DNA from: an uncultured Parcubacteria group bacterium
GTDB taxonomy: Bacteria; Patescibacteriota; Patescibacteriia; UBA9934; CAMTUG01
NCBI GenBank assembly: GCA_947084965.1
Contig: CAMTUG010000001.1
Coordinates: forward strand, 276,206-340,205
Direction: 5' to 3'
DNA: 64,000 bases
Below the pieces are notes generated by a model. It did no database searches, had not been told where the DNA came from, and saw nothing but the letters and a program-made list of their open reading frames with translations. Both the position numbers and the translations under genes were made by a program. Shown piece by piece: positions 9,639 through 58,646 of the stretch. Position 1 is the stretch's first letter. Each line of letters opens with the position of its first letter.

Positions 9639-10297
9639 CCAGTATTGCGGCGATCGTGCCGGCCTACAATGAAGCACAGACGATTGCGGACGTCGTAGCG
9701 ACGCTCCGTCAGAGTGTATTGGTGCAGGAGGTGATCGTCGTTTCTGACGGTTCAACCGATGATACGGAAGCGTTGGCGGCCTCTGCGGGGGCGCGGGTCA
9801 TTCGTCTGTCAAAAAAAGGAGGGAAGGGAGCGGCGATGCTCCATGGACTCACACAGACCGATGCCCAGATTATTCTGTTTACTGACGCGGATTTGATTGG
9901 ATTTACCACTGAGCATGTTGAACGCCTCTTACTTCCGATCCTAAACGGAGCGCGGGTTATGAACGTCGGTTTGCGTGACCGAGGGCGCTTGATTACGGCT
10001 CTGGGAAGGTTCTTGCCTCTCATTGGCGGCGAGCGGGCGATTCGGCGATCGGTCATTGAACAGATTCCTCCTCACTTTTTGCAAGGATTTATGATAGAAT
10101 CTGCTTTGAACTACTTCTGTCGATCGCGGCGCTTGGCGTACGGTTCCGTAGCCCTGCCTGGGCTTACCATTCGACGCAAGTATCAAAAAGTGGGTTGGAA
10201 GGAAGGATTTAAACAATATGCTCGGATGTCGGGCCAGATCGTGACCGCTATGGTTCGTGTCCGTATCGCCCATTTGACTGGAACATTTCACGTATGA
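9635..10297 (+). CDS. Family 2 glycosyltransferase
   Basis: 'AAIVPAYNEAQTI', 'VVSDGSTDDT' and 'TDADL' are GT-A/GT2 signatures. ATG 9635 is in frame with the longer track ORF. Confidence 0.8.
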   Translation: MTSIAAIVPAYNEAQTIADVVATLRQSVLVQEVIVVSDGSTDDTEALAASAGARVIRLSKKGGKGAAMLHGLTQTDAQIILFTDADLIGFTTEHVERLLLPILNGARVMNVGLRDRGRLITALGRFLPLIGGERAIRRSVIEQIPPHFLQGFMIESALNYFCRSRRLAYGSVALPGLTIRRKYQKVGWKEGFKQYARMSGQIVTAMVRVRIAHLTGTFHV

Positions 10298-13073: not shown

Positions 13074-13569
13074 ACTCGTCCAATTAAAGCCCGAAGAAGA
13101 GGTCATCCTGGTCGTCCATCAGTCGCTCATTCCTTGGTGGCCCAAGTTTTTGTTGGCGATATTGTGGGTGTTACTGCCGTTTTTTCTGCTTTTTCCCCTC
13201 TTTCAGATGCGCTTTTGGGGGGTGATGATCTTTCTTGCACTTCTGGCGAGCGGCGCGATCTACGCTTGGCGTACCTTTTTGGCTTGGCATCGATCCATTT
13301 TCATCATCACTGACCGCCGCATCATCGATCACGACCAGCGTGGACTATTCAGTCGTGTCGTTTCCGAAGCCCCCTTTTCGACCATTCAGGACGTCAGCTA
13401 TAAGATTAGCGGTTTCTGGCCGACCGTTCTGCGCTACGGCGATGTGACGGTGCAGATTCGCGGCAATGCGGTGAATCTGGAGATCTTTCATGTCCGACGA
13501 CCGCACCACGTCCATGATTTGCTCAATGATCTGCGTCTGGATCTCGAAGAAAATTCGGAAAACCCATAA
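13060..13569 (+). CDS. Membrane protein with a bacterial PH (YdbS/DUF304-like) domain
   Basis: 169 aa. Two N-terminal TM helices followed by 'IITDRRIIDHDQRGLFSRVVSEAPFSTIQDVSYK'. Confidence 0.6.
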   Translation: MNVSKLVQLKPEEEVILVVHQSLIPWWPKFLLAILWVLLPFFLLFPLFQMRFWGVMIFLALLASGAIYAWRTFLAWHRSIFIITDRRIIDHDQRGLFSRVVSEAPFSTIQDVSYKISGFWPTVLRYGDVTVQIRGNAVNLEIFHVRRPHHVHDLLNDLRLDLEENSENP

Positions 13570-13572
13570 TCC

Positions 13573-14043
13573 ATGGCTACCACAAACTTCATTCGCCGCC
13601 TGCTCGAACTACGTCTCTTCCTTGTGATTAACTTGGTGGCGCTCTTTTTCCTTTCACTTTCGTTCGGCCGCGAATATCTCCGTAATGCATCGATTGAGTC
13701 AGAAATTGCTTCGCTTAAAGCAGAAGAGTCAGCTCTTTCTGCCCGTAACCTAGAAATCATTGCTCTCTCTGAGTCTGTCCAAACTCAGTATTTTGTCGAA
13801 GGTGAGGGACGGGTCAAATACGGTTTACGCAAACCGGGGGAGGAATTGGTCGTTGTGACTCAAACGGAAACCGCCCAGCCACAGGCAACGGTGACGGACG
13901 GCCAGTCGGCCACGTCGAGCGACACAGGACCGACGGAATCAGAGGGGGAGGAGAACCGGGTAGGCAATCCGACGCGTTGGTGGTATTTCTTGTTCGATCA
14001 CCCGGCTTACGATCAACTGATCACAGACTATGGAAACGGCTGA
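13573..14043 (+). CDS. Septum-formation initiator (FtsB/DivIC-like)
   Basis: 156 aa. A single N-terminal TM helix, then the coiled coil 'IESEIASLKAEESALSARNLEI'. Confidence 0.6.
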   Translation: MATTNFIRRLLELRLFLVINLVALFFLSLSFGREYLRNASIESEIASLKAEESALSARNLEIIALSESVQTQYFVEGEGRVKYGLRKPGEELVVVTQTETAQPQATVTDGQSATSSDTGPTESEGEENRVGNPTRWWYFLFDHPAYDQLITDYGNG

Positions 14044-14935
14044 AGTCATCATTCATCCAAAACAGAAAACGCGCGCGCCTCGCTGGCCCTTCGCGATTTT
14101 ATTCGCGATCGCCTGTGTCGTGTTTGTTTGGTACGGCATGATGTATGGCCATAAGAGTGGTTGGGTCACGCGGTTTATCAGTGTTGTTCTCCCTGTGCCG
14201 GCGGTTGTGGTGAATGATGATACGATCACCTATCGCGATCTGCTGGTGCGGACGGATACGCTGTTATGGTTGAAGGGGGAGGACGCCGATCGCGAAGAGA
14301 CCTTTGCTCAGGCGATTAATGTGCTGATCGAGCAAGCACTTATTGAACAGATCGCTCGTGATTACGACGTCGAAGTGACCCGGGATGATAAGGATGCGGC
14401 GCTCTTGATGCTTGCAGGAGAGCTCGATGAAGATGCGTTTGCAGAAAAGATTCGCGACGAGTTGGATATGAGCTTGCGTCAGTTTGCGCGGGTGGTGGTC
14501 GAACCGCTCGCCTTGGCACAGAAACTTGAAATAGCGATTCATGAAGACGAGGCGACGCAAGCCGAAGTCCAGGCTAAGGCTGAAGAGGCGAGGGATAAGG
14601 TGTTGGCAGGGATGAGTTTTTCTGAAGCAGCAGCGCTCTATTCGCAAGATCCTTCGGGAGCAGAGGGCGGGGATGTTGGCTATATCACCAAAGCGACATT
14701 ACCAGCCGGTTGGGATATGTTGCTGACGTTACCAGAGGAGGGGGTGAGTGGGGTGATTGAAACAGAAGGGGAGTTCGTAATTTTGAAAGTCGCCTGGTTG
14801 GTTGGGGTCGGCGAAGATACACAGATCCGCACTCAGGCGATTATTCTCAAAAAGAAGACACTGTCAGAGATTGTTGCGTCGCGCCGCGAAACGAGTGATA
14901 TTTCGTACGTGGTGAAAAATGTTGATGGGCTCTAG
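14030..14935 (+). CDS. PpiC-type peptidyl-prolyl isomerase (PrsA/SurA-like), membrane anchored
   Basis: 301 aa. N-terminal TM helix and the C-terminal parvulin-like 'FSEAAALYSQDPSGAEGGDVGYITKA...GEFVILKV'. Confidence 0.7.
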   Translation: METAEVIIHPKQKTRAPRWPFAILFAIACVVFVWYGMMYGHKSGWVTRFISVVLPVPAVVVNDDTITYRDLLVRTDTLLWLKGEDADREETFAQAINVLIEQALIEQIARDYDVEVTRDDKDAALLMLAGELDEDAFAEKIRDELDMSLRQFARVVVEPLALAQKLEIAIHEDEATQAEVQAKAEEARDKVLAGMSFSEAAALYSQDPSGAEGGDVGYITKATLPAGWDMLLTLPEEGVSGVIETEGEFVILKVAWLVGVGEDTQIRTQAIILKKKTLSEIVASRRETSDISYVVKNVDGL

Positions 14936-14955
14936 TTGGAGGTGCTTCAAAATAC

Positions 14956-15006
14956 TGTTTTACAGTTCGTTTGAGCACATAATGTCGTCAAACGAACTGT
15001 AAAAGT
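14956..15006. repeat. Conserved-loop hairpin, family C, copy 1
   Basis: Stem 'tacagttcgtttga'/'tcaaacgaactgta' (14 bp perfect, extendable by tttt/aaaa). The 13-nt loop is 'gcacataatgtcg'. I aligned about 64 nt by eye with the copy at 59881-59940, and most positions match. Confidence 0.75.
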
Positions 15007-15034
15007 ACTTTTTAAGACACCCAACCTCGCGCGT

Positions 15035-15451
15035 ATGAAATCCATTCTTTATTTTGACTTCTTTGGCACGATCTACGACGGCACCCGGATCCCTCCGTCT
15101 ATGATTGATGTCATTCGAGAGCTTTCTAAAAGCTCTACCCTTGTGATCGTTTCATCAGCAGGAACTTCGTACATACGTGCGATCGTTGAACGCGAAGGGA
15201 TCGCCAATCATTTCCTCCACATCATGGGCGGTGACACGGGCGGATCAAAGTCAGACAAAATGATCGCGGTCGGGGTGACAGATGCCGTCATGATTACGGA
15301 TACGGCTGGGGATATCCGCGAAGCCAAAAAGGCTGGGGTTCGCGCGATCGGTGTCACCTGGGGATCAGATGCCGCTGAAGACCTTCTGGTGGCGGGGGCG
15401 GATGCTCTTGCTTCGGATGTGAAGGATCTTGCGGGCCTCTTGGCAAAATAA
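15035..15451 (+). CDS. HAD-superfamily hydrolase-like protein (short)
   Basis: 138 aa. 'FDFFGTI', 'VIVSSAG' and 'ITDTAGDIREAKKAGVRAIGVTWG' are HAD motifs I, II and IV. Confidence 0.6.
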   Translation: MKSILYFDFFGTIYDGTRIPPSMIDVIRELSKSSTLVIVSSAGTSYIRAIVEREGIANHFLHIMGGDTGGSKSDKMIAVGVTDAVMITDTAGDIREAKKAGVRAIGVTWGSDAAEDLLVAGADALASDVKDLAGLLAK

Positions 15452-15481
15452 GCGCCTCCCGATATACTGACGCCGCCGTAT

Positions 15482-15555
15482 GCGGGATTAGTACAGTGGT
15501 AGTATGCAAGCTTCCCAAGCTTGAGAGGCGAGTTCGATTCTCGTATCCCGCTCCA
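15482..15555 (+). tRNA. tRNA-Gly (anticodon CCC), CCA encoded
   Basis: GCGGGAT-TA-GTAC-AGTGGTA-GTAT-G-CAAGC-TTCCCAA-GCTTG-AGAG-GCGAG-TTCGATT-CTCGT-ATCCCGC-T-CCA. Confidence 0.85.
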
Positions 15556-15685
15556 GGAACATCGTAAATTTTGGAACACTGCTTTGTTGCGGGTCCCTGC
15601 CACCTTCGTCGACGCACCTTTCAGTGCGCCTCCTCGGATGGCATCCCGCGCCTCGCATTGTTCTCAAAATTGACGATGTTCCTGG
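15553..15685. repeat. 21-bp inverted repeat enclosing a 91-bp GC-rich structured core between two tRNAs
   Basis: 'ccaggaacatcgtaaattttg' (15553-15573) against 'caaaattgacgatgttcctgg' (15665-15685), complementary at 20 of 21 positions. The first arm starts in the CCA of tRNA-Gly. The core holds nested stems ('gcggg..tgcc'/'ggcatcccgc' and 'cgcac-ctttca-gtgcg'). Confidence 0.7.
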
Positions 15686-15715
15686 AAGCCAGTCCCGATG
15701 ACTGTTGATTTTGAT

Positions 15716-15790
15716 GCCGATGTAGCTCAGTGGTAGAGCAATGCTTTCGTAAAGCAGAGGTCGCGAGTTCGACTCTCGCCATCGGCTCCA
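15716..15790 (+). tRNA. tRNA-Thr (anticodon CGU), CCA encoded
   Basis: GCCGATG-TA-GCTC-AGTGGTA-GAGC-A-ATGCT-TTCGTAA-AGCAG-AGGTC-GCGAG-TTCGACT-CTCGC-CATCGGC-T-CCA. Confidence 0.85.
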
Positions 15791-15803
15791 AAAAATCTTC
15801 ACT

Positions 15804-15832
15804 TTGGTGGAGATTTTTTGTTGTGCTATACT
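15804..15832 (+). promoter_or_regulatory. Promoter of ftsE, apparently giving a leaderless transcript
   Basis: TTGGTG (15804-15809), a 17-nt spacer, then TATACT (15827-15832). The GTG start at 15841 is only 8 nt downstream and there is no SD. Confidence 0.45.
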
Positions 15833-15840
15833 GTTGGCGT

Positions 15841-16521
15841 GTGATTCACTTTAAGAACGTGACCAAAACATATCCACCGAACGTGGTGGGGCTGAAGGAC
15901 TGCTCCTTGCACATCAAACCAGGGGAGTTTGTTTGCATCGTCGGGAGGAGCGGAACGGGGAAGTCTACTCTCGCCAAATGTCTGTTTGCAGAAGAGCGCG
16001 CGGAGCGTGGAACGGTGGAGATTGGCGGCTGGGATATTACCAACATTAAAGCGAGTGAAGTTCCGTTGCTGCGTCGTCAGATCGGTGTCGTCTTCCAGGA
16101 CTTTAAATTATTGCCGAAAAAAACGGCGGAGGAGAACGTTTCCTTTGCCCTGGAAGTTGCCGGCGAACGTCCCAAGCGTATCCGCGAAGTGGTGCCGAAC
16201 GTGATGCGGATCGTCGGGCTGGGGGACAAAATGCACCGCTATCCACATCAGCTTTCCGGAGGGGAACAGCAGCGCATTTCAATCGCTCGTGCCTTGGTGC
16301 ATCGTCCGAAAGTGCTCGTCGCCGATGAACCAACGGGAAATTTAGACACGGTCAACACGCACGAAATCATCGAACTGCTCAAAAAGATTAACGACTTTGG
16401 GACAACGATCGTGCTCGTGACCCACAATCGCGAGGTAGTCAACAAGTTAAAAAAACGGGTCGTCACGCTCGAGGGGGGAAAGATCATCTCCGACGTTGAA
16501 GAAGGAAAATACAAACTGTGA
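15841..16521 (+). CDS. ftsE: Cell-division ABC ATPase FtsE
   Basis: Walker A 'GRSGTGKST', signature 'LSGGEQQR' and Walker B 'VLVADEPTGNLD'. The GTG start gives 'MIHFKNVTKTY'. The track ORF start at 15730 would overlap tRNA-Thr. Confidence 0.9.
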   Translation: MIHFKNVTKTYPPNVVGLKDCSLHIKPGEFVCIVGRSGTGKSTLAKCLFAEERAERGTVEIGGWDITNIKASEVPLLRRQIGVVFQDFKLLPKKTAEENVSFALEVAGERPKRIREVVPNVMRIVGLGDKMHRYPHQLSGGEQQRISIARALVHRPKVLVADEPTGNLDTVNTHEIIELLKKINDFGTTIVLVTHNREVVNKLKKRVVTLEGGKIISDVEEGKYKL

Positions 16522-19662: not shown

Positions 19663-20061
19663 TTACACAGCAACTTGTGTACAAAAAGAACACCGTTTTG
19701 CTTGGCGTGGAATTTCACTCAGGCATTCCTTGCATTTTTTTGTTGTAGGGTCTTCTGAAGGTTTGTTGCGAGATTTGGAAACGAGTAGATTCATGGGTTT
19801 GACCACGAAAAAGAAGACAGCGGTGGCTACAAGAAAGAATCCAATGAGGGCATTAATAAAGTGACCGTAAAGGAATTGACTGCCGTTAATCGTAAATGTG
19901 AGTTCACTAAAATCAGGTACTTTGGCAACAGCGGCGATGAGCGGAGTAAGGAGGTCATTTACGAGAGACGAGACCACTGTTCCAAATGCCGTACCTATGA
20001 TGACCCCAACCGCCAGGTCTACGACATTTCCCCTCAATAAAAACTGCTTAAATTCATGCAT
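19663..20061 (-). CDS. mscL: Large-conductance mechanosensitive channel MscL with a C-terminal CxxC...CxxC tail
   Basis: 'MHEFKQFLLRGNVVDLAVGVIIG' is the canonical MscL N-terminus. The internal ATG at 20061 is preferred over the track start at 20094. Confidence 0.85.
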   Translation of the reverse strand: MHEFKQFLLRGNVVDLAVGVIIGTAFGTVVSSLVNDLLTPLIAAVAKVPDFSELTFTINGSQFLYGHFINALIGFFLVATAVFFFVVKPMNLLVSKSRNKPSEDPTTKKCKECLSEIPRQAKRCSFCTQVAV

Positions 20062-20155
20062 ATATTCTATGGTGTATAAGTAAACAACCCACATCCTAAT
20101 TATACAGGAGCTTCCTAAGTTTCAACACGTCTGTTTGTGTTATACTTCGATATAT

Positions 20156-20644
20156 ATGAAAAAAATTCTGCTTTTAACTCTTGCTGTTTTTATTCTTGCG
20201 GTGGCCTACTGGCTCTTGTCACCATTTTTTATCGATAAGCAGGTTTCAGAAGATTCTCCTCTGTTGGAGCAGGGGACAGTAGAGATAAGCGATGAGACGG
20301 ATCCAGAACGCGTTCTTCCGCAGCAAGTCGCCAGCGGGATGTTTGTCGGTTTTGATGACATTCATCACGGGAGTGGTACGGCATCGCTCATAAAAACTGA
20401 CAGCGGCTATGTGTTGCGTTTCGAGGAGGACTTTGTTGTGGCCAATGGCCCTGATCTGTACGTAGGATTGGGAACTGATGGTCAGTATGTGAAGGATTCC
20501 GAGATCTCAAAACTAAAAGGTAATATCGGATCTCAGAATTACGAGCTCCCACCAGATTTCGACATCACCACGACGAACGAAGTTTGGATTTGGTGCCGAG
20601 CGTTTTCAACCCCGTTTGCGAGAGCCGTTCTGGATCAAAGATGA
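20156..20644 (+). CDS. Secreted or anchored DM13-domain-like protein
   Basis: N-terminal signal/TM 'MKKILLLTLAVFILAVAYWLL'. 'GMFVGFDDIHHGSGTASL...FVVANGPDLYVGL' resembles a DM13 domain. Confidence 0.55.
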   Translation: MKKILLLTLAVFILAVAYWLLSPFFIDKQVSEDSPLLEQGTVEISDETDPERVLPQQVASGMFVGFDDIHHGSGTASLIKTDSGYVLRFEEDFVVANGPDLYVGLGTDGQYVKDSEISKLKGNIGSQNYELPPDFDITTTNEVWIWCRAFSTPFARAVLDQR

Positions 20645-21124
20645 TTATTTTTTGCCCGGAGTCAGGGCGAGCATCCAGCGAATGCGTAATTGAGAAGATT
20701 TTTTGATCCAAGGGAAAGGAAAGTCAAACCAAATGCGCATGAACGTTTCGTGATCCAGGGATCGCCGCTTTCCATTTTCTGGATCAATAAAGATCACACG
20801 CAGATCCGTTACGCCGACAACGACAGAATAATGGCCTTCGTTAACAGAAAACCAGTTAAAAATAACAGGAACGCCTTTTTCACAGTACGCACGTATATCA
20901 GCGATCGTGGAGTGCTTTTTCCATCGCCCGCGAAAACCGTAGTGGTGTGCTGCGGTGAGCATCTGTGAAGGAGATGTTCCGTGGGAAACGGTCGTTTTGG
21001 CGAGGCGGCCAATTTCGCGTTGGGTAGCGACAACTCCATAATACGCGAAGACCATCTGCAGGCTTGCAGGACCACAATACGAGGGATATTGACGATAGGC
21101 GGGAACGTCTAGGTTTTTTGACAT
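20645..21124 (-). CDS. Stand-alone peptidase C39-like (papain-fold) protein
   Basis: 159 aa. Candidate catalytic Cys in 'SYCGPASLQM' and His in 'NEGHYSVVVG'. Last gene of a tight minus-strand operon. Confidence 0.6.
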   Translation of the reverse strand: MSKNLDVPAYRQYPSYCGPASLQMVFAYYGVVATQREIGRLAKTTVSHGTSPSQMLTAAHHYGFRGRWKKHSTIADIRAYCEKGVPVIFNWFSVNEGHYSVVVGVTDLRVIFIDPENGKRRSLDHETFMRIWFDFPFPWIKKSSQLRIRWMLALTPGKK

Positions 21125-21136
21125 ACGAAACTCAAA

Positions 21137-21715
21137 TTAGTGCAGTTGTTTCTTTCTGCCGAGGAGGATCGCGGCTACGACGGCAAAGTTACAGATGAAA
21201 ATATAGAACGGGTAGGCGAGGAGGGGGAGGTCAATGACGCCGACAGCTAACAGGCCAAAGAATCCTCCGGTGCCAGAAAGGGCCCAAGTGATTAACGTTT
21301 CGCTCTCTGGATGTTCGTAGGATTTGATGACGGTCAGCCAGGCGCCCATGGCGTCAATCAATACGGTTAAGTAGACGGCGATGACCGCATTATCGGTAAA
21401 GTACCAGATGAGCAACGTTACCGCGGCCGCAAGAAGGGTGATTACATCGCGTTTGAGGAGTCCGCCGAATCCGTAGCGGATCGAGAGGAGAAGAACAATG
21501 ATCACGCCGATCCCTTGAATGCCTGGGAGCCAGAGGGAATGGGTAGCACCCACGGCGAGTTGGGTAAAGAACCCCATGGCAGTGAGCACGCTCCAAATTA
21601 GCCACGACGCACGTTCTGGCCTCACAGTCCCTTTCACGATGGCGATGATGTACGGCGGATAGGAGATCGCACTAAAAACTCCTGCCAGGATGCCGAAAAT
21701 AGCGAGAATGTTCAT
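21137..21715 (-). CDS. Polytopic membrane protein, function unknown
   Basis: About 192 aa with about 6 hydrophobic helices. The start 'MNILAIFGIL' lies 4 nt after the stop of the upstream gene. Confidence 0.6.
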   Translation of the reverse strand: MNILAIFGILAGVFSAISYPPYIIAIVKGTVRPERASWLIWSVLTAMGFFTQLAVGATHSLWLPGIQGIGVIIVLLLSIRYGFGGLLKRDVITLLAAAVTLLIWYFTDNAVIAVYLTVLIDAMGAWLTVIKSYEHPESETLITWALSGTGGFFGLLAVGVIDLPLLAYPFYIFICNFAVVAAILLGRKKQLH

Positions 21716-21719
21716 ATAG

Positions 21720-22739
21720 TTACAACCCACGCTTTAAGCGGCGGAACGTTTCGATGGCGAAGTTGAGCCAGTACTTTTTGGTGAGCGGCAGGTCTTGGGC
21801 GTGAACGTACTCTTCGGGGAATCCACCGAATCCTTTTTTGAAAAGCGACAGTCCGGCCCAGGGGTGTTTGGGTTTGTTGTCCGGGGAGATTCCCCAGAAG
21901 TTATAGAGCGTACAGCCCCGGCGCTTGGCTTCTTGAATCGCTCGCCATTGCAAAAGCGATGAGGCGTTCAAGTGAGGGAAGATCTGAAGTGAACCGCTGT
22001 GGTGATAGTAGGCGGAACCGTTGTAGAAGATAATGATCGAGGCGGCGATGATCGTCCCTTGATAGGTGCCAAAGAAAAAGGCGGCCTGGTTGTCTTTAGC
22101 AAAAAGGTCAAACTCTTGTTTGAGGTAGGACTTGCTGAACGGCGTGTAGTGCTGACGATCCGCTGTCGCTTTGTACACTTTCCAAAAATCTTCCATCGCT
22201 TCCGGGTCGGTGCGCATGGTGATTTCGATCCTGTCCTTTTCTGACTTTTTGATCAGGTAGCGTGTTGTTTTGCGCATCTCTTTCAATAGCGTTTCCTCAT
22301 CTTTGGTGATGTCGAGGAGCCAGGAGAGTTCTGGATGCATGTGAATCGGTGCAGGGCGGAATCCTAGTGATGCGTAGAGACTTTTTTCCGTCACGGGTTG
22401 TAGTGGACAGATGCGAATGAAATCGCAGCGCTCGCGTTGTCCGATGTTAAGGAGTTCCTCGACGAGCACCTTGAGAATCCCAGCTGCGTCTGCATCTCTG
22501 GCGACCGTCGGACCGTGTGGACAGAGCAAAAAGGCTCCACGACGGGCGTTAATCTTAATGAGCAGAGCTACAGCCATCAATTGCTCCGCGCGATACACAC
22601 CCAGGCGGAAGATCTTTGATCCTGAGTGCTCGTACTGCAACCCCCATTTCCAGGAATGCAAAAACGTATGCGGACGCTGTTCTTGCATGAACGCTTCCCA
22701 ACGTTGTTCATCCTTTATTTCTGCAACGGAATAGTTCAT
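21720..22739 (-). CDS. FemAB-family aminoacyl-tRNA-dependent peptidoglycan peptide-bridge transferase (FemX-like)
   Basis: 339 aa. 'HTFLHSWKWG' and the overall FemAB/GNAT-duplication look. ATGA overlap with the upstream DegT-like gene. Confidence 0.7.
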   Translation of the reverse strand: MNYSVAEIKDEQRWEAFMQEQRPHTFLHSWKWGLQYEHSGSKIFRLGVYRAEQLMAVALLIKINARRGAFLLCPHGPTVARDADAAGILKVLVEELLNIGQRERCDFIRICPLQPVTEKSLYASLGFRPAPIHMHPELSWLLDITKDEETLLKEMRKTTRYLIKKSEKDRIEITMRTDPEAMEDFWKVYKATADRQHYTPFSKSYLKQEFDLFAKDNQAAFFFGTYQGTIIAASIIIFYNGSAYYHHSGSLQIFPHLNASSLLQWRAIQEAKRRGCTLYNFWGISPDNKPKHPWAGLSLFKKGFGGFPEEYVHAQDLPLTKKYWLNFAIETFRRLKRGL

Positions 22740-23935
22740 ACCTCGTGTTGAGTGGCAAACCAGGCGTTCACTTCGCGTACAATGCGCTCGGCGTCGGCCT
22801 TGGAGATCGAACGGTGCGTCGGTAAGTTGAGAATCTGCTCAGAAACGAACTCCGACTGCGGGCACGTCCCGGTATAATCGGTCAGGTACATGTATTTTTT
22901 AGGTGCGATTGGAGCATCGTACCAAATGTCGCTGATGTAGATACGGCGCTTGCGCAGATAGGTGATCAGACCTTCTCGCTGTTTTACGAGAATCGGGAAG
23001 CGCAGATAGATCGCATCGTTATGATTCGCGGCTAACATTAAAAGATCTTTGCTAAGACCTGATTGATATATTTCGGTAATCATCTTGCGATGCGTAATCA
23101 TCTTCGGAAGAACGGTGTATTCATGCATCGCTTGCACGGTGTACCAACTCGGAAGTTCGTGCGCTTCGACCGTCATGCCAGGAGGAAGAGGTTTGGAAAG
23201 CAGATGCAAGGATCGGCAGACTTTGTGAAGTAGTTTCCCAATACCTAGCGCATGAGTGAGCCGAATTTTATAGGTGAGGGTCGGATAAAAACGATCGCGC
23301 AGTTGCTGTGAGCGAGAGATCTGTTTTGCTGGAGCGTGCGTTTTGTCGCTGTACTGCTTCGAACGGGTGATCAGCGCGCCGCCGGAAACGGCATCAATCA
23401 CTTTGTCTTGGCTAAACGAAAGGATCGTGAAGTCGCCGATCGTTCCGGCTTCTTCACCAGATGTGTATTGAACGCCGATCGAATGAGCCAAGTCCTCGAT
23501 CAACACCAACTGTTTTGATCGACAGAACTCGGCGATCTCTCGCGCTTCACACGGCTCGCCAAGCGTATTTTGAATGATGACAACGGTGATATCTGGGTTT
23601 GCTTCCACGGCGGTTTTCAACGCATCAAGGGAGAAGTTCAGCGAACCTGGTTCAATATCGAGGAGCTCGGCACGATATCCGCTGTTCACAATGGCCTGAT
23701 AGACGGCATAACAGGTGAAGCCGTTGATGATGACCGTACTTCCAGGCTTAGTGATTTTATTCAGAGCGAGGGCGATCGCTTCGCGGCCTTTGTAGGTGAG
23801 GGTCACTTCGCCGCCATAGCGTGACGATAAGAAATCAATAAAGCGCTGGCGTCTGGCCGGTGTGCCAACAGCCAGAAACGTTCGCCAAGCGTCGAAGAAT
23901 CCGTAGTTTGATCCGAGAGAGTTGAAGATGCTCAT
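22736..23935 (-). CDS. DegT/DnrJ/EryC1-type PLP-dependent (sugar) aminotransferase
   Basis: 'SFSQDKVIDAVSGGALI' carries the PLP-lysine motif. The internal ATG at 23935 avoids overlap with the upstream gene. Confidence 0.7.
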   Translation of the reverse strand: MSIFNSLGSNYGFFDAWRTFLAVGTPARRQRFIDFLSSRYGGEVTLTYKGREAIALALNKITKPGSTVIINGFTCYAVYQAIVNSGYRAELLDIEPGSLNFSLDALKTAVEANPDITVVIIQNTLGEPCEAREIAEFCRSKQLVLIEDLAHSIGVQYTSGEEAGTIGDFTILSFSQDKVIDAVSGGALITRSKQYSDKTHAPAKQISRSQQLRDRFYPTLTYKIRLTHALGIGKLLHKVCRSLHLLSKPLPPGMTVEAHELPSWYTVQAMHEYTVLPKMITHRKMITEIYQSGLSKDLLMLAANHNDAIYLRFPILVKQREGLITYLRKRRIYISDIWYDAPIAPKKYMYLTDYTGTCPQSEFVSEQILNLPTHRSISKADAERIVREVNAWFATQHEV

Positions 23936-23936
23936 A

Positions 23937-24623
23937 CTAGGCGAGCTCCTGAATGATCTGTTCAGCGACAACTTCCGGATGCGTAACGTGTGGGGAGTGT
24001 CGCGCATTTGGAATCACAAAAAGCTTTGAATTCTCAATCGATCGGTGCATCAACTCACCGTCACTAAGCGGGGTGCTGCCGTCGTTCGCGCCCCAAATGA
24101 GGAGTGTTGGTGCTTTGATGCTTGATAAAACGGAACGCAGATCAACGCCGATCAGGTTAGCCATCGTTTTGCGCATGGCGGGACTTGCCTTCTCATAATC
24201 GCGTTCGCGGGCGGCACGATAGAGAAGTTTGCGTAGGCGATCGGATGAACTGAAGAGCTTTCCGACTTTGGCGAGGAGCCAAAAGACGCTGCGCTTGATG
24301 CGAATTTTTAAACCGTTCGGATAGATCCCGGCGCTGTCGATCAAAATCAATCGCTCAACTTTTTCTGGATATCGTGAAGCAAAAGCGATCGAGATGCGCC
24401 CGCCGTTTGAGTGGCCGACTAAGATGACCTTCTCTTCGTCTTTGAGTTCTGACTTCAACCAATCAACGTAATCATCGAGCGTCCAGGTGCGATCGGTGCC
24501 GTCGGTTAAGCCCGGAACGGGCAACAATTGCGAATCAATCCCGCTTTGCTTAAGCAGGGCGATGAGCGGATTCCAGGTGTCGGTGGTGTACGTCCAACCG
24601 TGGAGGATGTAAATCTTTTTCAT
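23937..24623 (-). CDS. Alpha/beta-fold hydrolase
   Basis: 'ILHGW' and the nucleophile elbow 'GHSNGG'. About 228 aa. Confidence 0.7.
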   Translation of the reverse strand: MKKIYILHGWTYTTDTWNPLIALLKQSGIDSQLLPVPGLTDGTDRTWTLDDYVDWLKSELKDEEKVILVGHSNGGRISIAFASRYPEKVERLILIDSAGIYPNGLKIRIKRSVFWLLAKVGKLFSSSDRLRKLLYRAARERDYEKASPAMRKTMANLIGVDLRSVLSSIKAPTLLIWGANDGSTPLSDGELMHRSIENSKLFVIPNARHSPHVTHPEVVAEQIIQELA

Positions 24624-25894
24624 AATGACCACTGCTTACGGCGAATCTGCCAGATCTGTTCGCGGCGGCAGAGCTTGTTTACATCGTCAGGGGAGGCAAG
24701 GAGATGTTCGATGACCCCTTCGAGGAATCGCGCGCCCTTAAATAGCAAAACCTCATCGCCTTTGATCGCAGACGAAAGATAATCAAGTGCGTCCTTCGGT
24801 TGGATGAATGATTCAATGTGCACTCCACGTTCTTCAAGTTCAGCTAACTTTGGCAGAGTGTACTTGGTGAGGCGTGGACCGACAAGAATGATCTGTTCGA
24901 AGTCGCTATCCACCAGGAGTTCAGCGAGGCCTTCGTGCTCGGTTTGCTCCTGTTCACCTTGCTCGATCAGATCACCAAGGATCGCCCACTTTTTTTCTGC
25001 TCGAAGTTGATTGACCATCGATACAATGACAGAGACAGAAGCGAGGTTGGCGTTATAGCTGCTGTCGATGATCGTTGTGTTTTTGATTCCAGCAAACAAC
25101 GAGCTCCGTCCTGGGGGCATGACAAGGCGTGAGAAGTGTTCGTCCGTTTGCTGTCCAAAGTATTCACAAATAACAGGCGTGGCAGCGATCGCATAGAACG
25201 TTTCTTTTGGAAGAAGATAGGGGAGATGATACGCGCGCCCACTGATCACAAATCCTGTCCCGGTCGTGGCAACGGAATATTCTTCGAGGTGGTCATCCTC
25301 GCGCACTTCGCGCCATTCGGCGGTCGTGCGTTTTTTCTGATCAACGATTAGTTTGTTGTCACCGTTCGTGATAACGAGTTTTGATGCCTGTTCGACGAAA
25401 TACCCAAACTCGTAGGCGATCGCCTCGTCTACGTTAGTAAACTTTCCTGTGCGCAGTAATTTTTCAAACTGCTGGCTGTGCGTTCGAGCACAGCTGAGCC
25501 AGATAACAATTTCTGGCTTGAGTAAAGCACTCAGGAAGCGACCTTCTCCTGGACGTTCCGCATCGGCTTCGACAACATAGATTTTCTCTGTCGGCGGTTT
25601 TTTCCAGGCCCGAATCGGAGCGAGAAGAAAAAGACCGATCCACTCAACGGGAGAAAACGTCGTACGTTTCAACCCGAGAATATCAAACGGAATTCCGTAA
25701 GTGCTGTTAGCGTGATGAGAATACTTGGCCGCTGTCTGCAGCTGCGATTCGAGCAGATGGAGGGCGGTCGTCTTTCCGTTTGATCCGGTAACAACAACAA
25801 TGCGCGGCTTCCAGAGGTGCAATTGAATCAACGCGCAATACTTAAAATAATGCGCGATAAAAAAATACAGTTTGTGCTTGATTTTCCTGAACAT
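24620..25894 (-). CDS. Mur ligase family protein, MurF-like
   Basis: 'VVVTGSNGKTT' P-loop, 'ILGDLIEQGEQEQTEHEGL' (compare MurF 'LGDMLELGE') and 'LLFKGARFLEG'. Hydrophobic N-terminus. First gene of the operon. Confidence 0.7.
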   Translation of the reverse strand: MFRKIKHKLYFFIAHYFKYCALIQLHLWKPRIVVVTGSNGKTTALHLLESQLQTAAKYSHHANSTYGIPFDILGLKRTTFSPVEWIGLFLLAPIRAWKKPPTEKIYVVEADAERPGEGRFLSALLKPEIVIWLSCARTHSQQFEKLLRTGKFTNVDEAIAYEFGYFVEQASKLVITNGDNKLIVDQKKRTTAEWREVREDDHLEEYSVATTGTGFVISGRAYHLPYLLPKETFYAIAATPVICEYFGQQTDEHFSRLVMPPGRSSLFAGIKNTTIIDSSYNANLASVSVIVSMVNQLRAEKKWAILGDLIEQGEQEQTEHEGLAELLVDSDFEQIILVGPRLTKYTLPKLAELEERGVHIESFIQPKDALDYLSSAIKGDEVLLFKGARFLEGVIEHLLASPDDVNKLCRREQIWQIRRKQWSL

Positions 25895-25968
25895 TTCGGC
25901 TGGTTATAGCCCCCCCGTGAACACCCTAAACCTTTCAGAGAATAACAGAATTCGAGCATTTTGACCAC

Positions 25969-26025
25969 AAAAATCAGAAGCCGCCCTCGGGAGAGTGTGT
26001 CGCGAAGGCGACTTCCGAGAGCGGC
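25969..26025 (-). terminator. GC-rich terminator of the zinc-ribbon cassette
   Basis: The minus strand reads 'gccgctctcgga..gtcgc-cttc-gcgac..cccgagggcggc' followed by 'ttctgattttt'. Confidence 0.6.
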
Positions 26026-26035
26026 GTGAGCCGGG

Positions 26036-26329
26036 TCAGTGGTAGAGGATGGTCGGATCGTCCGAACCGTCCGTGCCGGTGGTGGCGACCCTCCAGGCTC
26101 GGAGGATGCGTTGTAGTACCTCGTCTGGTTCGGCGGCCTTCGGCGTGACCGGAGGGTTCGAGGGCGTCATCGCGGCGTATCGATGACCGCAGTCCTCGCA
26201 GACGTACTCCGTCGTTGGGCGATCCGCCCCGAAGTTCACGATCTCCACGAGCTGGGTGTTCCGTCGCGGGCACCAGTCGCAGTCGCCGGTACACAGAGGG
26301 TTGCTCTGAAGCAGGCGGGTCTTAGACAT
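26036..26329 (-). CDS. Zinc-ribbon protein with a Thr/Ser/Asp-rich C-terminus (orphan, GC3-rich)
   Basis: 97 aa. 'CTGDCDWC...CEDC' four-Cys ribbon and the C-terminus 'VATTGTDGSDDPTILYH'. 25/30 G/C at codon position 3. AGGAG lies 5 nt before the ATG. Confidence 0.65.
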   Translation of the reverse strand: MSKTRLLQSNPLCTGDCDWCPRRNTQLVEIVNFGADRPTTEYVCEDCGHRYAAMTPSNPPVTPKAAEPDEVLQRILRAWRVATTGTDGSDDPTILYH

Positions 26330-26349
26330 GAGGTCTCCTGGTTGAACTA

Positions 26350-26378
26350 GGAATATCAGTTTCGATTGAGGCCGTCAA
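26350..26378 (-). promoter_or_regulatory. Promoter for the zinc-ribbon ORF, embedded in the 3' end of the rimK-like gene
   Basis: The minus strand reads TTGACG, a 17-nt spacer, then TATTCC. Confidence 0.35.
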
Positions 26379-27252
26379 CTGTTTTGACAGCAAAGTCAAC
26401 GATCGCGCCAGCGACATCGACGCCCGATGCGCGTTCTAATTCTTCAAATCCTGGATTGGCGTTGACTTCGATCACCAGCGGTCCTCGTTTTGAGCGAAGG
26501 ATATCGACGCCGGCGATTTCAAGGCTGAACGCTTTTGCCGCCTCGATCGCCATGCGCATCTCTTCTTCTGTCAGTTCAACCGCTGTGCCAACTCCACCAA
26601 GCGACGCGTTGGCACGAACGTCACCGATGATTGCGGTGCGTTCCATCGCTGCAATCACTTGGTCACCAACAACAAAGGCGCGCAGATCTTTGCGACCCGC
26701 TTCGGCGATAAACTCCTCAACGATGATCGGGTTTTTGTCACGAATATGTAAATATTCAACGATCGGGGAGAGCGTTTCCACGTTCTCGGCGTAAAAAATC
26801 CCTTTGCCGTGGGTACCGAAGGCAACTTTTAAAATGATCGGATAGCCGATTTTGGCCGCCTCCGCTCGGGCATGATCCGAGGTGCGGCAGATCGCCCAGC
26901 GCGGCATGGCCACGCCAGCACGCGAGAGAATGAAATGTTGCGCCAGCTTATTTTTGGCGATCCCTCCGAGCGGGGAGTGGTTGATCACGCGAAAACCAAG
27001 AGCAACGAGCGCGTCCGTCGTAACGGCGTGCAAGCTCGGCTCTTCGACGAACCCTGGTCGGTTAATAATCACATCGAGCTTCGGTAACTCAGCTCCCATG
27101 TGCGTGACGATGCCTCCGGCGATGACGATCTCCGGCTCATGGAGCATCGTCACCTCGTGTCCCATCGCTCGTGCGGCCTGAATCAACCGCGGTGCGAGCG
27201 CTGGGTCGTCGATCTGTTTTGGGCGGCCGCTGGTTAAGATTCCAATGTGCAT
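26356..27252 (-). CDS. RimK-family ATP-grasp ligase
   Basis: 298 aa. 'YPIILKVAFGTHGKGIF', 'EEFI' and 'AGVDILRSKRGPLVIEVNANPGF' are ATP-grasp signatures. Confidence 0.8.
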   Translation of the reverse strand: MHIGILTSGRPKQIDDPALAPRLIQAARAMGHEVTMLHEPEIVIAGGIVTHMGAELPKLDVIINRPGFVEEPSLHAVTTDALVALGFRVINHSPLGGIAKNKLAQHFILSRAGVAMPRWAICRTSDHARAEAAKIGYPIILKVAFGTHGKGIFYAENVETLSPIVEYLHIRDKNPIIVEEFIAEAGRKDLRAFVVGDQVIAAMERTAIIGDVRANASLGGVGTAVELTEEEMRMAIEAAKAFSLEIAGVDILRSKRGPLVIEVNANPGFEELERASGVDVAGAIVDFAVKTVDGLNRN

Positions 27253-27256
27253 AATG

Positions 27257-27380
27257 TGGATCTTTAGAAAACTGCGTCTTTTCGTTTCACGGGTCCCGTC
27301 GACCCACTCAACGTAGAATCCCTACGTCTCGCGGGCTCGACACCCGTTCAACGAAAATACATCAGTTTTCTAAAGATCCA
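27257..27380. repeat. Long imperfect palindrome, family D, copy 2
   Basis: 'tggatctttagaaaactg' (27257-27274) is perfectly complementary to 'cagttttctaaagatcca' (27363-27380), which encodes the last codons of dus. The core shares 'ctcaacgta..tacgtct' with copy 1. Confidence 0.7.
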
Positions 27381-28348
27381 AGAGCTAGTTCGAGATCTTC
27401 GATCGTCGAGATCGCGTGGAGTTTTTCGCGCATCATTTTGGCTCCGGGCAGGCCTTTGAAGTACCACATCAAATGCTTCCGGAAAGAGACGATCCCTTTG
27501 GGGCCGTACTGTTCAACGTGAAGTTCTGCATGACGGCGGATGACGCGCAGGCGTTCTTCAAAGCTCACTGGTGTTGGTGTTTTCCCATTCAATATTTCGT
27601 GCATCTGCGAAAAGATCCACGGATTGCCGAGCGCTCCGCGGGCGATCAGTACGCCGTCGCAGCCGGACGCTCTGAGCGCTTCGGGCATCAACTCGGCTTT
27701 ATGAATGTCACCGTTACACAATACAGGAATCGACACGGCAGACTTTACCTTACCAACCTGCACCCAATCAGCGGTACCAGAATAGCCTTGCATTTTCGTG
27801 CGTCCATGAACGGTGATCAGATCAGCTCCGGCCGCTTCAAGCACCTTAGCAAACTCCACGCACTGTTCAGGGTCGTTCCATCCAAGACGGATTTTGACTG
27901 AAAGTGGAACGTTGATCACCGCCTTCATCGCTTTTATAATCTCGCCGGCTAACTTTGGTTCTTTCATCAGCGCCGCGCCATTAAAGTTGTGGACGATTTT
28001 ATACACCGGGCATCCCATGTTGATGTCGAACCCTTCCGGGTTATGCTCAGCCGCGATGATCCGTGCCGACTCGGCCATCGTGGCCGGGTCGCTTCCAAAG
28101 ATCTGCTGCACCAAAGGCCGTTCCGCTGGGTGAATCTCGGTCATCCCGAGCGTTTTGTCCGATCCGCGTACCACCGCTTCGGCCGAAACCATCTCACGAA
28201 ATTCAACCAAGTTCACTTCCGGAGGAGTGACTTCGCGCACCACGCGACAAAAGGCCGAGTCGGTCATGTCGGCCATCGGCGAAAGCGCAATGATCGGGCG
28301 TGGGAGAGATTTCCAATCGAGCATAGCAAGGCAGGATGATACATCCAC
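27362..28348 (-). CDS. dus: tRNA-dihydrouridine synthase
   Basis: 'LSPMADMTDSAFCRV', 'DINMGCP' and 'TVHGRT'. An alternative start lies at 28324. Confidence 0.85.
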   Translation of the reverse strand: MDVSSCLAMLDWKSLPRPIIALSPMADMTDSAFCRVVREVTPPEVNLVEFREMVSAEAVVRGSDKTLGMTEIHPAERPLVQQIFGSDPATMAESARIIAAEHNPEGFDINMGCPVYKIVHNFNGAALMKEPKLAGEIIKAMKAVINVPLSVKIRLGWNDPEQCVEFAKVLEAAGADLITVHGRTKMQGYSGTADWVQVGKVKSAVSIPVLCNGDIHKAELMPEALRASGCDGVLIARGALGNPWIFSQMHEILNGKTPTPVSFEERLRVIRRHAELHVEQYGPKGIVSFRKHLMWYFKGLPGAKMMREKLHAISTIEDLELALGSLEN

Positions 28349-58604: not shown

Positions 58605-58646
58605 CTCTAGCAGGCGTTCGCAATTCTTGCTAGAGTTTGTGTGGAT

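Follow-up and report, generated by a model that had tools for sequence, protein, structure and literature searches.

Four adjacent genes in a 64-kb stretch of Parcubacteria DNA (the window) encode a short MurF-type ligase (g1), an alpha/beta hydrolase (g2), a pyridoxal phosphate (PLP) enzyme (g3) and a FemX-type transferase (g4), and they recur as a unit in many lineages of the CPR. The chances seem to us roughly even that these genes act as one peptidoglycan-precursor cassette, standing in for MurF and Ddl (in some cases also Alr), which builds and adds positions 4-5 of the stem peptide via an aminoacyl-tRNA/PLP route. If so, ultra-small Patescibacteria (CPR) may complete the peptidoglycan stem peptide by an undescribed tRNA-dependent route, a possibility raised because the cassette occupies the slot that in some relatives holds the enzymes of D-Ala-D-Ala synthesis.

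An earlier note on this DNA had described six tightly packed minus-strand genes separated by gaps of at most 12 nt or by ATGA overlaps, and this layout was borne out coordinate for coordinate (Table 1). The stop of g1 overlaps the start of g2 at 24623-24620 and the stop of g3 overlaps the start of g4 at 22739-22736, both as ATGA, and the remaining junctions are gaps of 1 nt (g2-g3), 4 nt (g4-g5) and 12 nt (g5-g6). Its domain calls all agreed with Pfam and NCBIfam, and the membrane protein it had given six transmembrane helices has seven. At the operon, the search for a sigma-70-like promoter and for an intrinsic terminator gave nothing above the level of shuffled sequence, no consensus promoter was seen upstream of g1, and an Rfam search of 20000-27500 returned zero matches.

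Table 1. Positions of the operon features and of the other mur genes in the 64-kb window.
Feature	Position	Strand	Description
g1	24620-25894	-	Short MurF-type ligase, 424 aa
g2	23937-24623	-	Alpha/beta-fold serine hydrolase or acyltransferase, 228 aa
g3	22736-23935	-	DegT/DnrJ/EryC1-type fold-type-I PLP enzyme, 399 aa
g4	21720-22739	-	FemAB/FemX-type (double-GNAT) aminoacyl-tRNA-dependent transferase, 339 aa
g5	21137-21715	-	7-TM membrane protein, PQ-loop/SWEET/KDEL-receptor fold
g6	20645-21124	-	Stand-alone C39-like papain-fold cysteine peptidase, 159 aa
Upstream intergenic region of g1	25895-26035	-	141 nt; presumed operon promoter and 5' UTR
MurD	10294-11733	+	NCBIfam murD, 330 bits (cutoff 212)
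MurE, N-terminally short	11781-13073	+	NCBIfam murE, 350 bits (cutoff 257)
MurC	58641-59867	+	NCBIfam murC, 390 bits (cutoff 335)
MurB	61350-62216	+	NCBIfam, 304 bits (cutoff 259)

The conserved unit is g1-g4 alone, not all six genes. Conservation was read in the best 80 of 157 related loci, each with 10 kb flanks, and 70 CPR loci of that set extend 3.1 kb or more downstream of g1. In 66 of these, g2, g3 and g4 follow g1 with order and strand unchanged. The other 4 lack all three genes, and a partial set was found in 0 of the 70. The ratio of loci with the cassette to loci without it (76:4) is biased, since one of the two scan patterns used, FKGARF[LM]EG, catches the cassette-type loop alone and the set comprises the best 80 of 157 loci. 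Genes flanking the cassette vary between lineages, and g5 and g6, which the earlier note had counted in the unit, are lineage add-ons found in none of the best 80 of 157 loci. In 11 full-length cases among the same 80, g3 forms the N-terminal part of a fusion with the FemAB domain; g3-g4 fusions also occur in more than 60 protein clusters, some merely 29-41% identical to the query. One locus (L172) has the rearranged order g2-g1-x-g3g4 with all four functions still together, and one lineage (L171) has added an extra, separate FemAB gene. The earlier note had named lack of conservation in relatives as what would refute the cluster; g1-g4 are strongly conserved as a unit across many CPR lineages, and the note was right to doubt that this is a textbook peptidoglycan module.

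In two separate syntenic contexts the place of g2-g4 is taken by Ddl, alone or together with Alr. The first runs from an M24 peptidase through three small genes, DnaB and g1 to the slot, followed by Maf and five further common families; the slot holds g2-g3-g4 in L026, L047, L054 and L074, and Ddl with or without Alr in L065, L078, L081, L084, L173 and L174, where g1 orthologues form g1-Ddl operons. In the second (GyrB-MurC ... DUF6580 ... Def-GyrA), L032 has g1-g4 and L087 has Alr-Ddl, and L031 and L053 carry g1-g4 inside the same outer flanks. Genomes that bear the cassette may thus lack Ddl, although the view is limited to the 10 kb flanks. Ddl is frequent among CPR, with examples from lineages labelled Nomurabacteria, Parcubacteria and Roizmanbacteria, and in L085 and L175 it lies distant from MurF, which leaves room for both systems in those genomes.

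The ligase changes with its partners. All 76 cassette-type g1 proteins have the KGSR-type loop FK[GS][AS]RF[LM][ED][GA], two residues shorter, which reads FKGARFLEG as the C-terminal loop of g1 in the window, and in all 7 from loci that lack the cassette the loop is as long as in canonical MurF (FKG[SA]QSxxLEG or FKASGSQTIE); this co-variation with the partner genes is perfect (76 vs 7) and represents few independent events, because the Ddl-type g1 proteins are essentially one clade plus L057. Seven positions with 90% or higher conservation among cassette-type g1 proteins are changed in the Ddl clade, and all lie at residues 307-418, in the C-terminal third of the protein.

As the fourth Mur ligase beside MurC, MurD and MurE, g1 is most likely the MurF of the lineage, a probable housekeeping enzyme. 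Its Pfam domains are Mur_ligase_M and Mur_ligase_C, with the P-loop at residues 37-43 and the N-terminal UDP-binding domain absent; its top NCBIfam family is murF (128.7 bits, under the 288.6 cutoff), and its relatives of solved structure are MurF without exception. The family is spread CPR-wide at 47-75% identity, and elsewhere in CPR g1 comes immediately after MurC-MurD or MurE-MurC-MurD. The earlier note's fallback, that with a housekeeping MurF the novelty would lie in the genes coupled to it, holds, with MurF the most likely assignment.

Those coupled genes belong to recognizable folds. The g2 protein matches Abhydrolase_1, Abhydrolase_6 and Hydrolase_4 in Pfam and zero NCBIfam families at or above cutoff, and its motifs GHSnGGR, WG..D and HsP are kept across 74 homologues. 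For g3, the Pfam match is DegT_DnrJ_EryC1 (134 bits) and all of 71 homologues keep the PLP lysine motif lSFsQDK unchanged; it falls in no characterised NCBIfam subfamily, the top equivalogs scoring at most 89.5 bits against cutoffs of at least 375. The g4 protein (Pfam FemAB, 135 bits) has the size of the Weissella viridescens enzyme FemX_Wv, lacks a coiled-coil insert and retains the catalytic Lys as F-K-K, aligned with the FK of FemX_Wv and FemX_Sa. Arg211 of FemX_Wv, also Arg in S. aureus FemX, is replaced in g4 by a Phe (F201) that is invariant in 69 homologues; in FemX_Wv, Arg211 and Lys36 bind the phosphates and D-Ala-D-Ala of the precursor (PMC2655667).

In the cassette model, g3 would supply or stereochemically adjust an amino-acid amine, and g4, often fused to it, would couple the aminoacyl group of an aminoacyl-tRNA to that amine, yielding a dipeptide with no ATP-grasp chemistry. 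The g1 ligase, with its altered substrate loop, would then join the predicted dipeptide to UDP-MurNAc-tripeptide, and g2 would be an obligatory accessory that may edit or release the product. Residues carried by tRNA are L-amino acids or Gly and DD-transpeptidases require a D-centre at stem position 4, so such a route would need epimerisation, Gly or an unusual terminus.

The closest known systems each share part of this arrangement. In the canonical D-Ala-D-Ala branch, exemplified by the B. subtilis ddl-murF operon, an ATP-dependent Mur ligase likewise adjoins genes supplying its incoming substrate, and both sets contain one PLP enzyme and one peptide-bond-forming enzyme; some CPR have g1-Ddl(-Alr) operons built on g1 orthologues. 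The partners differ: the canonical branch uses a racemase of fold type III with an ATP-grasp ligase, the cassette a DegT-like PLP enzyme of fold type I with a FemX-like aminoacyl-tRNA transferase and a serine hydrolase, and g1, unlike canonical MurF, lacks domain 1 and has the shortened KGSR-type loop. A PLP domain is joined to a FemX-like domain in DhpH of dehydrophos biosynthesis, a likeness to g3-g4 at the level of domain descriptions. Bougioukou et al. 2013 are said to have found that the N-terminal domain of DhpH is PLP dependent and produces the accepting amine. The FemX-like C-terminal domain transfers the aminoacyl group of aminoacyl-tRNA to a small amine, making a dipeptide, and other FemX-like enzymes that aminoacylate small amines are DhpK, VlmA and Orf11 (PMC12945691). 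Unlike the cassette, DhpH belongs to Streptomyces secondary metabolism, acts on a phosphonate and has no Mur ligase or hydrolase partner. MurD2/MurL, which add L-Glu and then epimerise it, offer a precedent for alternative placement of a D-amino acid in the stem peptide and occur in L087, at the very slot in which the cassette gives way to Alr-Ddl; in contrast to the cassette they act at position 2, pair a Mur ligase paralogue with a dedicated epimerase and use neither tRNA nor PLP.

A more ordinary explanation, which we regard as less likely but as a serious competitor, is that g1 is a housekeeping MurF using D-Ala-D-Ala made by a Ddl encoded elsewhere, that g4 is a FemX_Wv-like enzyme placing the initial residue of a cross-bridge on position 3 of the nucleotide or lipid precursor, and that g3 and g2 perform an associated but distinct modification of the precursor or bridge. 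Source annotations do call these proteins MurF and FemA/FemB, Ddl is widespread in CPR, and murA-G, femX and mraY are listed for Patescibacteria MAGs (PMC12992704). FemX_Wv, a UDP-MurNAc-pentapeptide:L-Ala transferase, resembles g4 in its double-GNAT FemAB fold, its length (~335 aa) without a coiled coil, its catalytic Lys and its cytoplasmic, Mur-pathway-linked role. The MurE of the window has EDPY in place of the DNPR of mDAP-type enzymes, so its substrate could be a diamino acid, for instance the Lys that Fem enzymes usually accept, and L171 resembles systems with multi-residue bridges in having two FemAB genes. Left unexplained, however, are the fusion of the PLP enzyme to the Fem domain, the all-or-none presence of g2-g4 with MurF, the appearance of Ddl/Alr in their exact slot in two contexts and the partner-dependent ligase loop. 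So is the invariant Phe at the Arg211 equivalent, in which g4 departs from FemX_Wv, as it does in its frequent fusion to a PLP enzyme, its fixed genomic association with MurF and its alternation with Ddl. The earlier note had proposed a non-canonical stem peptide or cross-bridge; the Ddl/Alr alternation and the loop shift the weight toward the former, and we infer from these comparisons, rather than demonstrate, that stem-peptide positions 4-5 are a better assignment than a Lys cross-bridge.

Improbable in our estimation is an amino-sugar route, in which g3 would aminate a nucleotide keto-sugar, g4 would aminoacylate the resulting amino sugar and g1 would extend the peptide, giving an amino-sugar-peptide unit for a glycan strand variant or secondary envelope polymer. 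All solved relatives of g3, TlmJ, perosamine synthase and QdtB among them, are nucleotide-sugar, inosose or other keto-sugar/cyclitol aminotransferases or dehydratases, and glycylation of an amino sugar is known from the FemAB-like Orf11 of BD-12 (PMC12945691). Yet g3 lies outside every characterised sugar-aminotransferase equivalog, the genes that alternate with the cassette are those of amino-acid enzymes (Ddl/Alr) rather than sugar genes, and no dehydratase or oxidoreductase that would make a keto-sugar is conserved beside the DegT gene, where the flanks are lineage-variable, which leaves the earlier suggestion of an amino-sugar-peptide polymer unsupported. It is very doubtful that g1 is instead a MurT/CapB-like ligase without the N-domain whose acceptor would be lipid II or some other molecule, with a canonical MurF encoded at a different place in the genome: the missing N-terminal domain, as in MurT, and the score far under the murF cutoff would fit, but the MurE of the same window is likewise N-terminally short (its NCBIfam murE match begins at model position 69), MurF is the sole family and solved relative along the length of g1, relatives place g1 after MurC-MurD or MurE and before Ddl, and the MurT and CapB models gave no match to g1.

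The last two genes, g5 and g6, are co-transcribed extras in this organism, outside the conserved core. The seven helices of g5 share the fold of PQ-loop/SWEET/KDEL-receptor 7-TM proteins, with no sequence-family match in Pfam or NCBIfam. In g6, which matches Peptidase_C39_2, C39 and C70 in Pfam, no N-terminal hydrophobic signal-like segment was seen by eye; it has no ABC transporter attached and shares the Cys/His pair of C39/PeiR-type peptidases (Cys17 in YCGPASL and the His in EGHYSVV), its closest solved relative being the pseudomurein endoisopeptidase PeiR (8z4h, E 8.4e-7).

The six minus-strand open reading frames (g1-g6) that an earlier note had described were recovered at identical coordinates by ORF calling (see table), and their layout is that of a single translationally coupled operon. 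Read on the reverse strand, the g1/g2 and g3/g4 junctions are ATGA stop/start overlaps, the remaining junctions have spacers of 1, 4, and 12 nt, and a 141-nt spacer lies upstream of g1. A scan of the operon region detected no sigma-70-like promoter or intrinsic terminator above chance, and an Rfam search of the same region returned no element. At the other end, the g6 stop codon (20645-20647) lies flush against that of a convergent gene with a DM13 domain (region 20135-20645; last base, 20644), which leaves zero spacer for a terminator. Directly upstream on the same strand, a RimK-family ligase and a Cys-rich ORF occupy a segment (26036-27252) with a GC content of 0.556, compared to about 0.50. 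This ligase was considered as a cryptic Ddl and rejected, as it scored 207 bits with RimK models versus 29 bits with Ddl models.

Coordinates of the operon genes and other features of the window
Feature	Position	Strand	Basis or description
g1	25894-24620	minus	ORF call; short MurF-type ligase
g2	24623-23937	minus	ORF call; alpha/beta hydrolase
g3	23935-22736	minus	ORF call; DegT-family PLP enzyme
g4	22739-21720	minus	ORF call; FemAB transferase
g5	21715-21137	minus	ORF call; family-less membrane protein
g6	21124-20645	minus	ORF call; stand-alone C39-like peptidase
MurD	10294-11733	plus	score above curated cutoff
MurE, N-terminally short	11781-13073	plus	score above curated cutoff; 430 aa
MurC	58641-59867	plus	score above curated cutoff
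MurB	61350-62216	plus	
RimK-family ATP-grasp ligase	26356-27252	minus	207 bits vs cutoff 143
Cys-rich ORF, 97 aa	26036-26329	minus	

Species-representative genomes were scanned for related loci (L-numbers), and the best 80 of 157 were kept with 10-kb flanks. Seventy loci have 3.1 kb or more of sequence downstream of g1. In 66 of them g1 is followed by g2, g3, and g4, with order and strand conserved; the other four lack all three, and a partial set was found in none of the 70. In the 10 loci at contig ends, the genes were present as far as the sequence extended. Neighbors outside g1-g4 varied with lineage, and none of the 80 loci yielded g5 or g6. The unit that is conserved thus has four genes, g1-g4 (hereafter the cassette), and not six: the gene-neighborhood comparison across genomes of the CPR (Patescibacteria) upholds the proposed unit for its first four members, which stay together across lineages, and not for the last two. 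The products of g3 and g4 are joined in one polypeptide, across a linker of 4 to 12 residues, in 11 full-length proteins from the genome loci. More than 60 protein clusters contain such DegT-FemAB fusions, with DegT at the N terminus in every match listed and in some instances with only 29 to 41% identity to the query. Two divergent lineages depart from the usual layout but still have the four functions together. In L172 the order is g2-g1-x-g3g4, and in L171 (an 877-kb contig; 12243-15869) a second FemAB paralogue, which stands alone, comes after the fusion, with leucyl-tRNA synthetase behind it. Many TPA_asm metagenome-assembled genome records titled "uncultured Gammaproteobacteria" (L017, L019, L021, L024, L027, L034, and others) contain a CPR-type cassette in CPR synteny, as does one titled "Limnocylindrales"; the organism labels of these records look wrong.

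Pfam and NCBIfam profile searches bore out the domain calls made earlier for the annotated genes. In g1, Mur_ligase_M (32.5 bits) and Mur_ligase_C (45.8 bits) both exceed the Pfam cutoff, a P-loop of the GxxGKT type is present (TGSNGKTT, residues 37-43), and the motifs are invariant in 26 homologues. Its best NCBIfam family is murF (TIGR01143), at 128.7 bits and thus below the cutoff of 288.6, and all solved relatives that it matched are MurF enzymes. The N-terminal domain of the three-domain MurF architecture was not found by Pfam or by alignment to solved MurF enzymes; residues 96-160 of 2am1 are matched by g1 residues 26-87, and about 70 to 95 N-terminal residues are missing. Because MurC, MurD, and MurE are also encoded in the window, g1 is the fourth Mur ligase. 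Among the matches listed, its homologues are 47 to 75% identical over their full length and come from Kaiser-, Kerfeld-, Davies-, Levy-, Roizman-, Doudna-, and Nomurabacteria and from Saccharimonadia; the window itself belongs to a CPR bacterium. The gene lies directly downstream of MurC-MurD(-MurE) in L002, L017, L024, L031, L032, L055, and L083, and its orthologues adjoin Ddl in some CPR loci. Judged from these comparisons, the g1 family is most likely the CPR MurF, in a form without domain 1. The window MurE is also short at its N terminus, its match to TIGR01085 beginning at model position 69, which suggests that domain 1, the UDP-binding domain, has been lost generally from CPR MurE and MurF. 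This MurE has EDPY where mDAP-type MurE enzymes carry DNPR, suggesting that stem residue 3 is other than mDAP.

Ddl was sought in all ORFs with an E. coli DdlB query sequence, and matches were confirmed by Pfam annotation. It was present in 3 of the 80 loci (10-kb flanks), all three among the four that lack g2-g4. Two genomic contexts allow the position downstream of g1, or slot, to be compared between otherwise similar loci. In the first, an M24 peptidase, three small genes, DnaB, and g1 precede the slot, and Maf and five more shared gene families follow it; these flanks are the same in cassette-type and Ddl-type loci. The slot holds g2-g3-g4 in L026, L047, L054, and L074, Ddl-Alr in L078 and L081, Ddl alone in L084, L173, and L174, and an aminotransferase plus Ddl in L065; L022 and L052 share the upstream flank. 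The L065 enzyme is a class I/II aminotransferase (11890-13062; Aminotran_1_2, 192 bits) located where L078 and L081 have Alr, and it may serve as one more alternative source of D-Ala. In the second context, GyrB-MurC ... DUF6580 ... Def-GyrA, the interior is MurD-g1-g2-g3-g4 in L032 and MurD2/MurL-Alr-Ddl in the Microgenomates locus L087, and L031 and L053 carry g1-g4 inside the same outer flanks. This is the pattern expected for in-place displacement of one functional cassette by an analogous one.

In the L087 genome, two branches of the precursor pathway have been exchanged together: Alr-Ddl stands in place of g1-g4, and a MurD2-like ligase and MurL epimerase (PF26299/PF26298; 5768-8223, GCA_016182045.1) replace MurI/MurD in the GyrB-to-GyrA slot. 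The MurD2/MurL system is a precedent for alternative routes to D-residues in the stem. A 391-aa protein that follows Ddl in L087 was considered as a divergent MurF and rejected because it resembles neither g1 nor any Pfam family.

Ddl is common in CPR, and it lies far from MurF in L085 and L175, so both systems may coexist in some genomes. Among the best 120 matches to the L081 Ddl, no Ddl at least about 56% identical to it came from the 1.14-Mb or 894-kb cassette contigs. The only contigs common to the Ddl and cassette lists were those of Ddl-type L078 and L081, in what is a weak comparison of the best 120 matches each. A metagenome scan with a CPR Ddl alignment returned 80 loci, none with a CPR-type MurF and none with g2-g4. 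The RRF-M50-Ddl region, the parcubacterial Ddl neighborhood, is absent from the window.

The ligase itself differs according to the company it keeps. Near the C terminus, canonical MurF enzymes have the motif F-K-[GA]-S-R-x3-[MI]-E (for example, FKGSRFTHME or FKASRAVRIE), and the corresponding loop of the window g1, FKGARFLEG, is two residues shorter. All 76 cassette-type g1 proteins have the short loop (FKGARF[LM]EG, with the variants FKSARFMEG, FKGARFLEA, and FKGSRFLDG), and all seven without the cassette have a loop of canonical length (FKG[SA]QSxxLEG in six and FKASGSQTIE in L057). Conservation reaches at least 90% at 107 positions of cassette-type g1; seven of these are altered in the Ddl clade, every one within residues 307-418, the C-terminal third. 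The equivalent loops of MurD and MurE suggest by analogy that the g1 loop contacts the incoming amino acid or dipeptide. The 76:4 ratio in favor of the cassette is inflated, because one scan pattern matches the short loop only and because the best 80 of 157 loci were kept. The Ddl-type g1 proteins form one clade plus L057, so there have been few independent transitions, two or three.

The g2 product is an alpha/beta hydrolase in which GHSnGGR, Asp, and His are kept in 74 homologues. The DegT Pfam domain of g3 scores 134.1 bits, above the cutoff, and its PLP-binding lysine motif, SFSQDK, is invariant across homologues; against characterized equivalogs (PseC, LegC, WecE, ArnB, DesI, and others), it reached at most 89.5 bits, with none of the cutoffs of 375 to 650 attained. 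The g4 product has a FemAB (double-GNAT) domain (135.1 bits versus a Pfam cutoff of 24), is the size of FemX_Wv, and has no coiled coil. In FemX_Wv, Arg211 and Lys36 hold the phosphates and D-Ala-D-Ala of the precursor (PMC2655667). The residue aligned with Arg211 is also Arg in S. aureus FemX (FemX_Sa) and is Phe201 in g4, invariant throughout the CPR family; the comparison of precursor binding is confined to this position, as the alignment is unreliable at Lys36. The catalytic lysine (Lys305 of FemX_Wv) is kept, SLFKKGFGG of g4 aligning to VFKHVF in FemX_Wv and AFKKVWG in FemX_Sa, and F.K.GFGG is invariant in 69 homologues.

Fem reactions acylate an amine and cannot lengthen a peptide at its C terminus. 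A contribution of g4 to the linear stem would therefore require it to make, beforehand, the unit that MurF adds, and for this reason we propose a three-step scheme, which we regard as about as likely as not. The g3 enzyme would supply or stereochemically adjust an amino-acid amine, either through stereo-inverting transamination of a 2-oxo acid or through epimerization of the product at its free N-terminal residue; g4 would condense an aminoacyl group from aminoacyl-tRNA with the amine supplied by g3; and g1 would ligate the resulting dipeptide to UDP-MurNAc-tripeptide. The obligatory serine hydrolase, g2, perhaps acts in editing or release. We infer all three chemical steps from the genomic pattern, which alone was observed. 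FemX-like enzymes that aminoacylate small amines (DhpH-C, DhpK, VlmA, and Orf11) offer a precedent (PMC12945691). A broader form of this model, which we regard as quite possible if short of probable, is that most Patescibacteria do not use Ddl or Alr and that a four-enzyme cassette finishes the stem peptide: the PLP enzyme and the FemX-like transferase would make a terminal dipeptide, possibly not D-Ala-D-Ala, and a domain-1-less MurF with a remodeled loop would attach it.

A more ordinary interpretation has a plain MurF, a cross-bridge of the FemX type attached to residue 3, and two enzymes in accessory roles. The window MurE without DNPR and the two Fem genes in L171 fit such an arrangement, and we consider it plausible, though less likely than the cassette scheme. 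It leaves unexplained the DegT-FemAB fusion, the all-or-none linkage of g2-g4, the alternation of the slot with Ddl/Alr, the co-variation of the ligase loop, and the loss of Arg211 in g4. An amino-sugar route for the cassette is improbable, as no gene making a keto-sugar substrate is conserved beside g3, where only g1, g2, and g4 are conserved neighbors across the best 80 of 157 loci. A MurT-like role is at odds with the position of g1 in the pathway and is very improbable.

Databases and papers label g1-g4 as MurF, hydrolase, DegT, and FemA/FemB. Our literature search found no paper on the g1-g4 cluster, the DegT-FemAB fusion, or a link to Ddl/Alr, and none on Ddl or Alr in CPR. The enzyme families themselves are well known, and what sets them apart here is their arrangement as a conserved and apparently self-contained alternative to the D-Ala-D-Ala branch. 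That branch (Alr, Ddl, and MurF) is regarded as near-universal; D-cycloserine acts on it, and glycopeptides act on its product. CPR make up a large part of bacterial diversity, and to our knowledge their wall chemistry is essentially unmeasured. If a cassette-made dipeptide does complete the stem, it would represent the first tRNA-dependent step in the linear stem peptide and a new role for Fem-type enzymes and for a DegT-type PLP enzyme, altered sensitivity to D-cycloserine and vancomycin would be predicted across a large bacterial radiation, metabolic reconstructions of CPR that tick "murF, femX" would need revision, and the cassette would provide a lineage-specific marker and target. Should the cross-bridge interpretation hold instead, CPR wall synthesis would still have a conserved, unexplained feature in the DegT-FemAB fusion and the obligatory MurF-hydrolase-DegT-FemAB linkage.

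In the window genome, g5 and g6 are probably cotranscribed with g4, given their spacers of 4 and 12 nt. The g6 product retains its Cys/His pair (YCGPASL and EGHYSVV; Peptidase_C39_2, 58 bits; C39, 52 bits) and, unlike the N-terminal domain of C39 ABC exporters (PCAT), is a stand-alone protein of 159 aa. Among solved structures it is closest to PeiR, a pseudomurein endoisopeptidase (8z4h; E value, 8.4e-7), and not to a bacteriocin-processing domain; one speculative reading of g6 is a cysteine endopeptidase akin to a cross-link isopeptidase, which would be compatible with an envelope role. A Pfam search of g5 at E values up to 10 gave only noise and no family. The protein had been described as having six transmembrane segments, but its AlphaFold2 model, built with 51 homologues (pLDDT, 94.8), has seven helices in a predicted 3+1+3 arrangement of the PQ-loop/SWEET (TOG) superfamily, and g5 could, again speculatively, be a PQ-loop-fold transporter or flippase-like protein. 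Its family comprises 2748 representative clusters and has no Pfam entry. Some g5 homologues carry SH3_3 or DUF4384 domains, and another, P0501, combines the PQ-loop-fold membrane domain in one protein with an MprF-type LPG_synthase_C domain, that of an aminoacyl-tRNA-dependent lipid aminoacylase.
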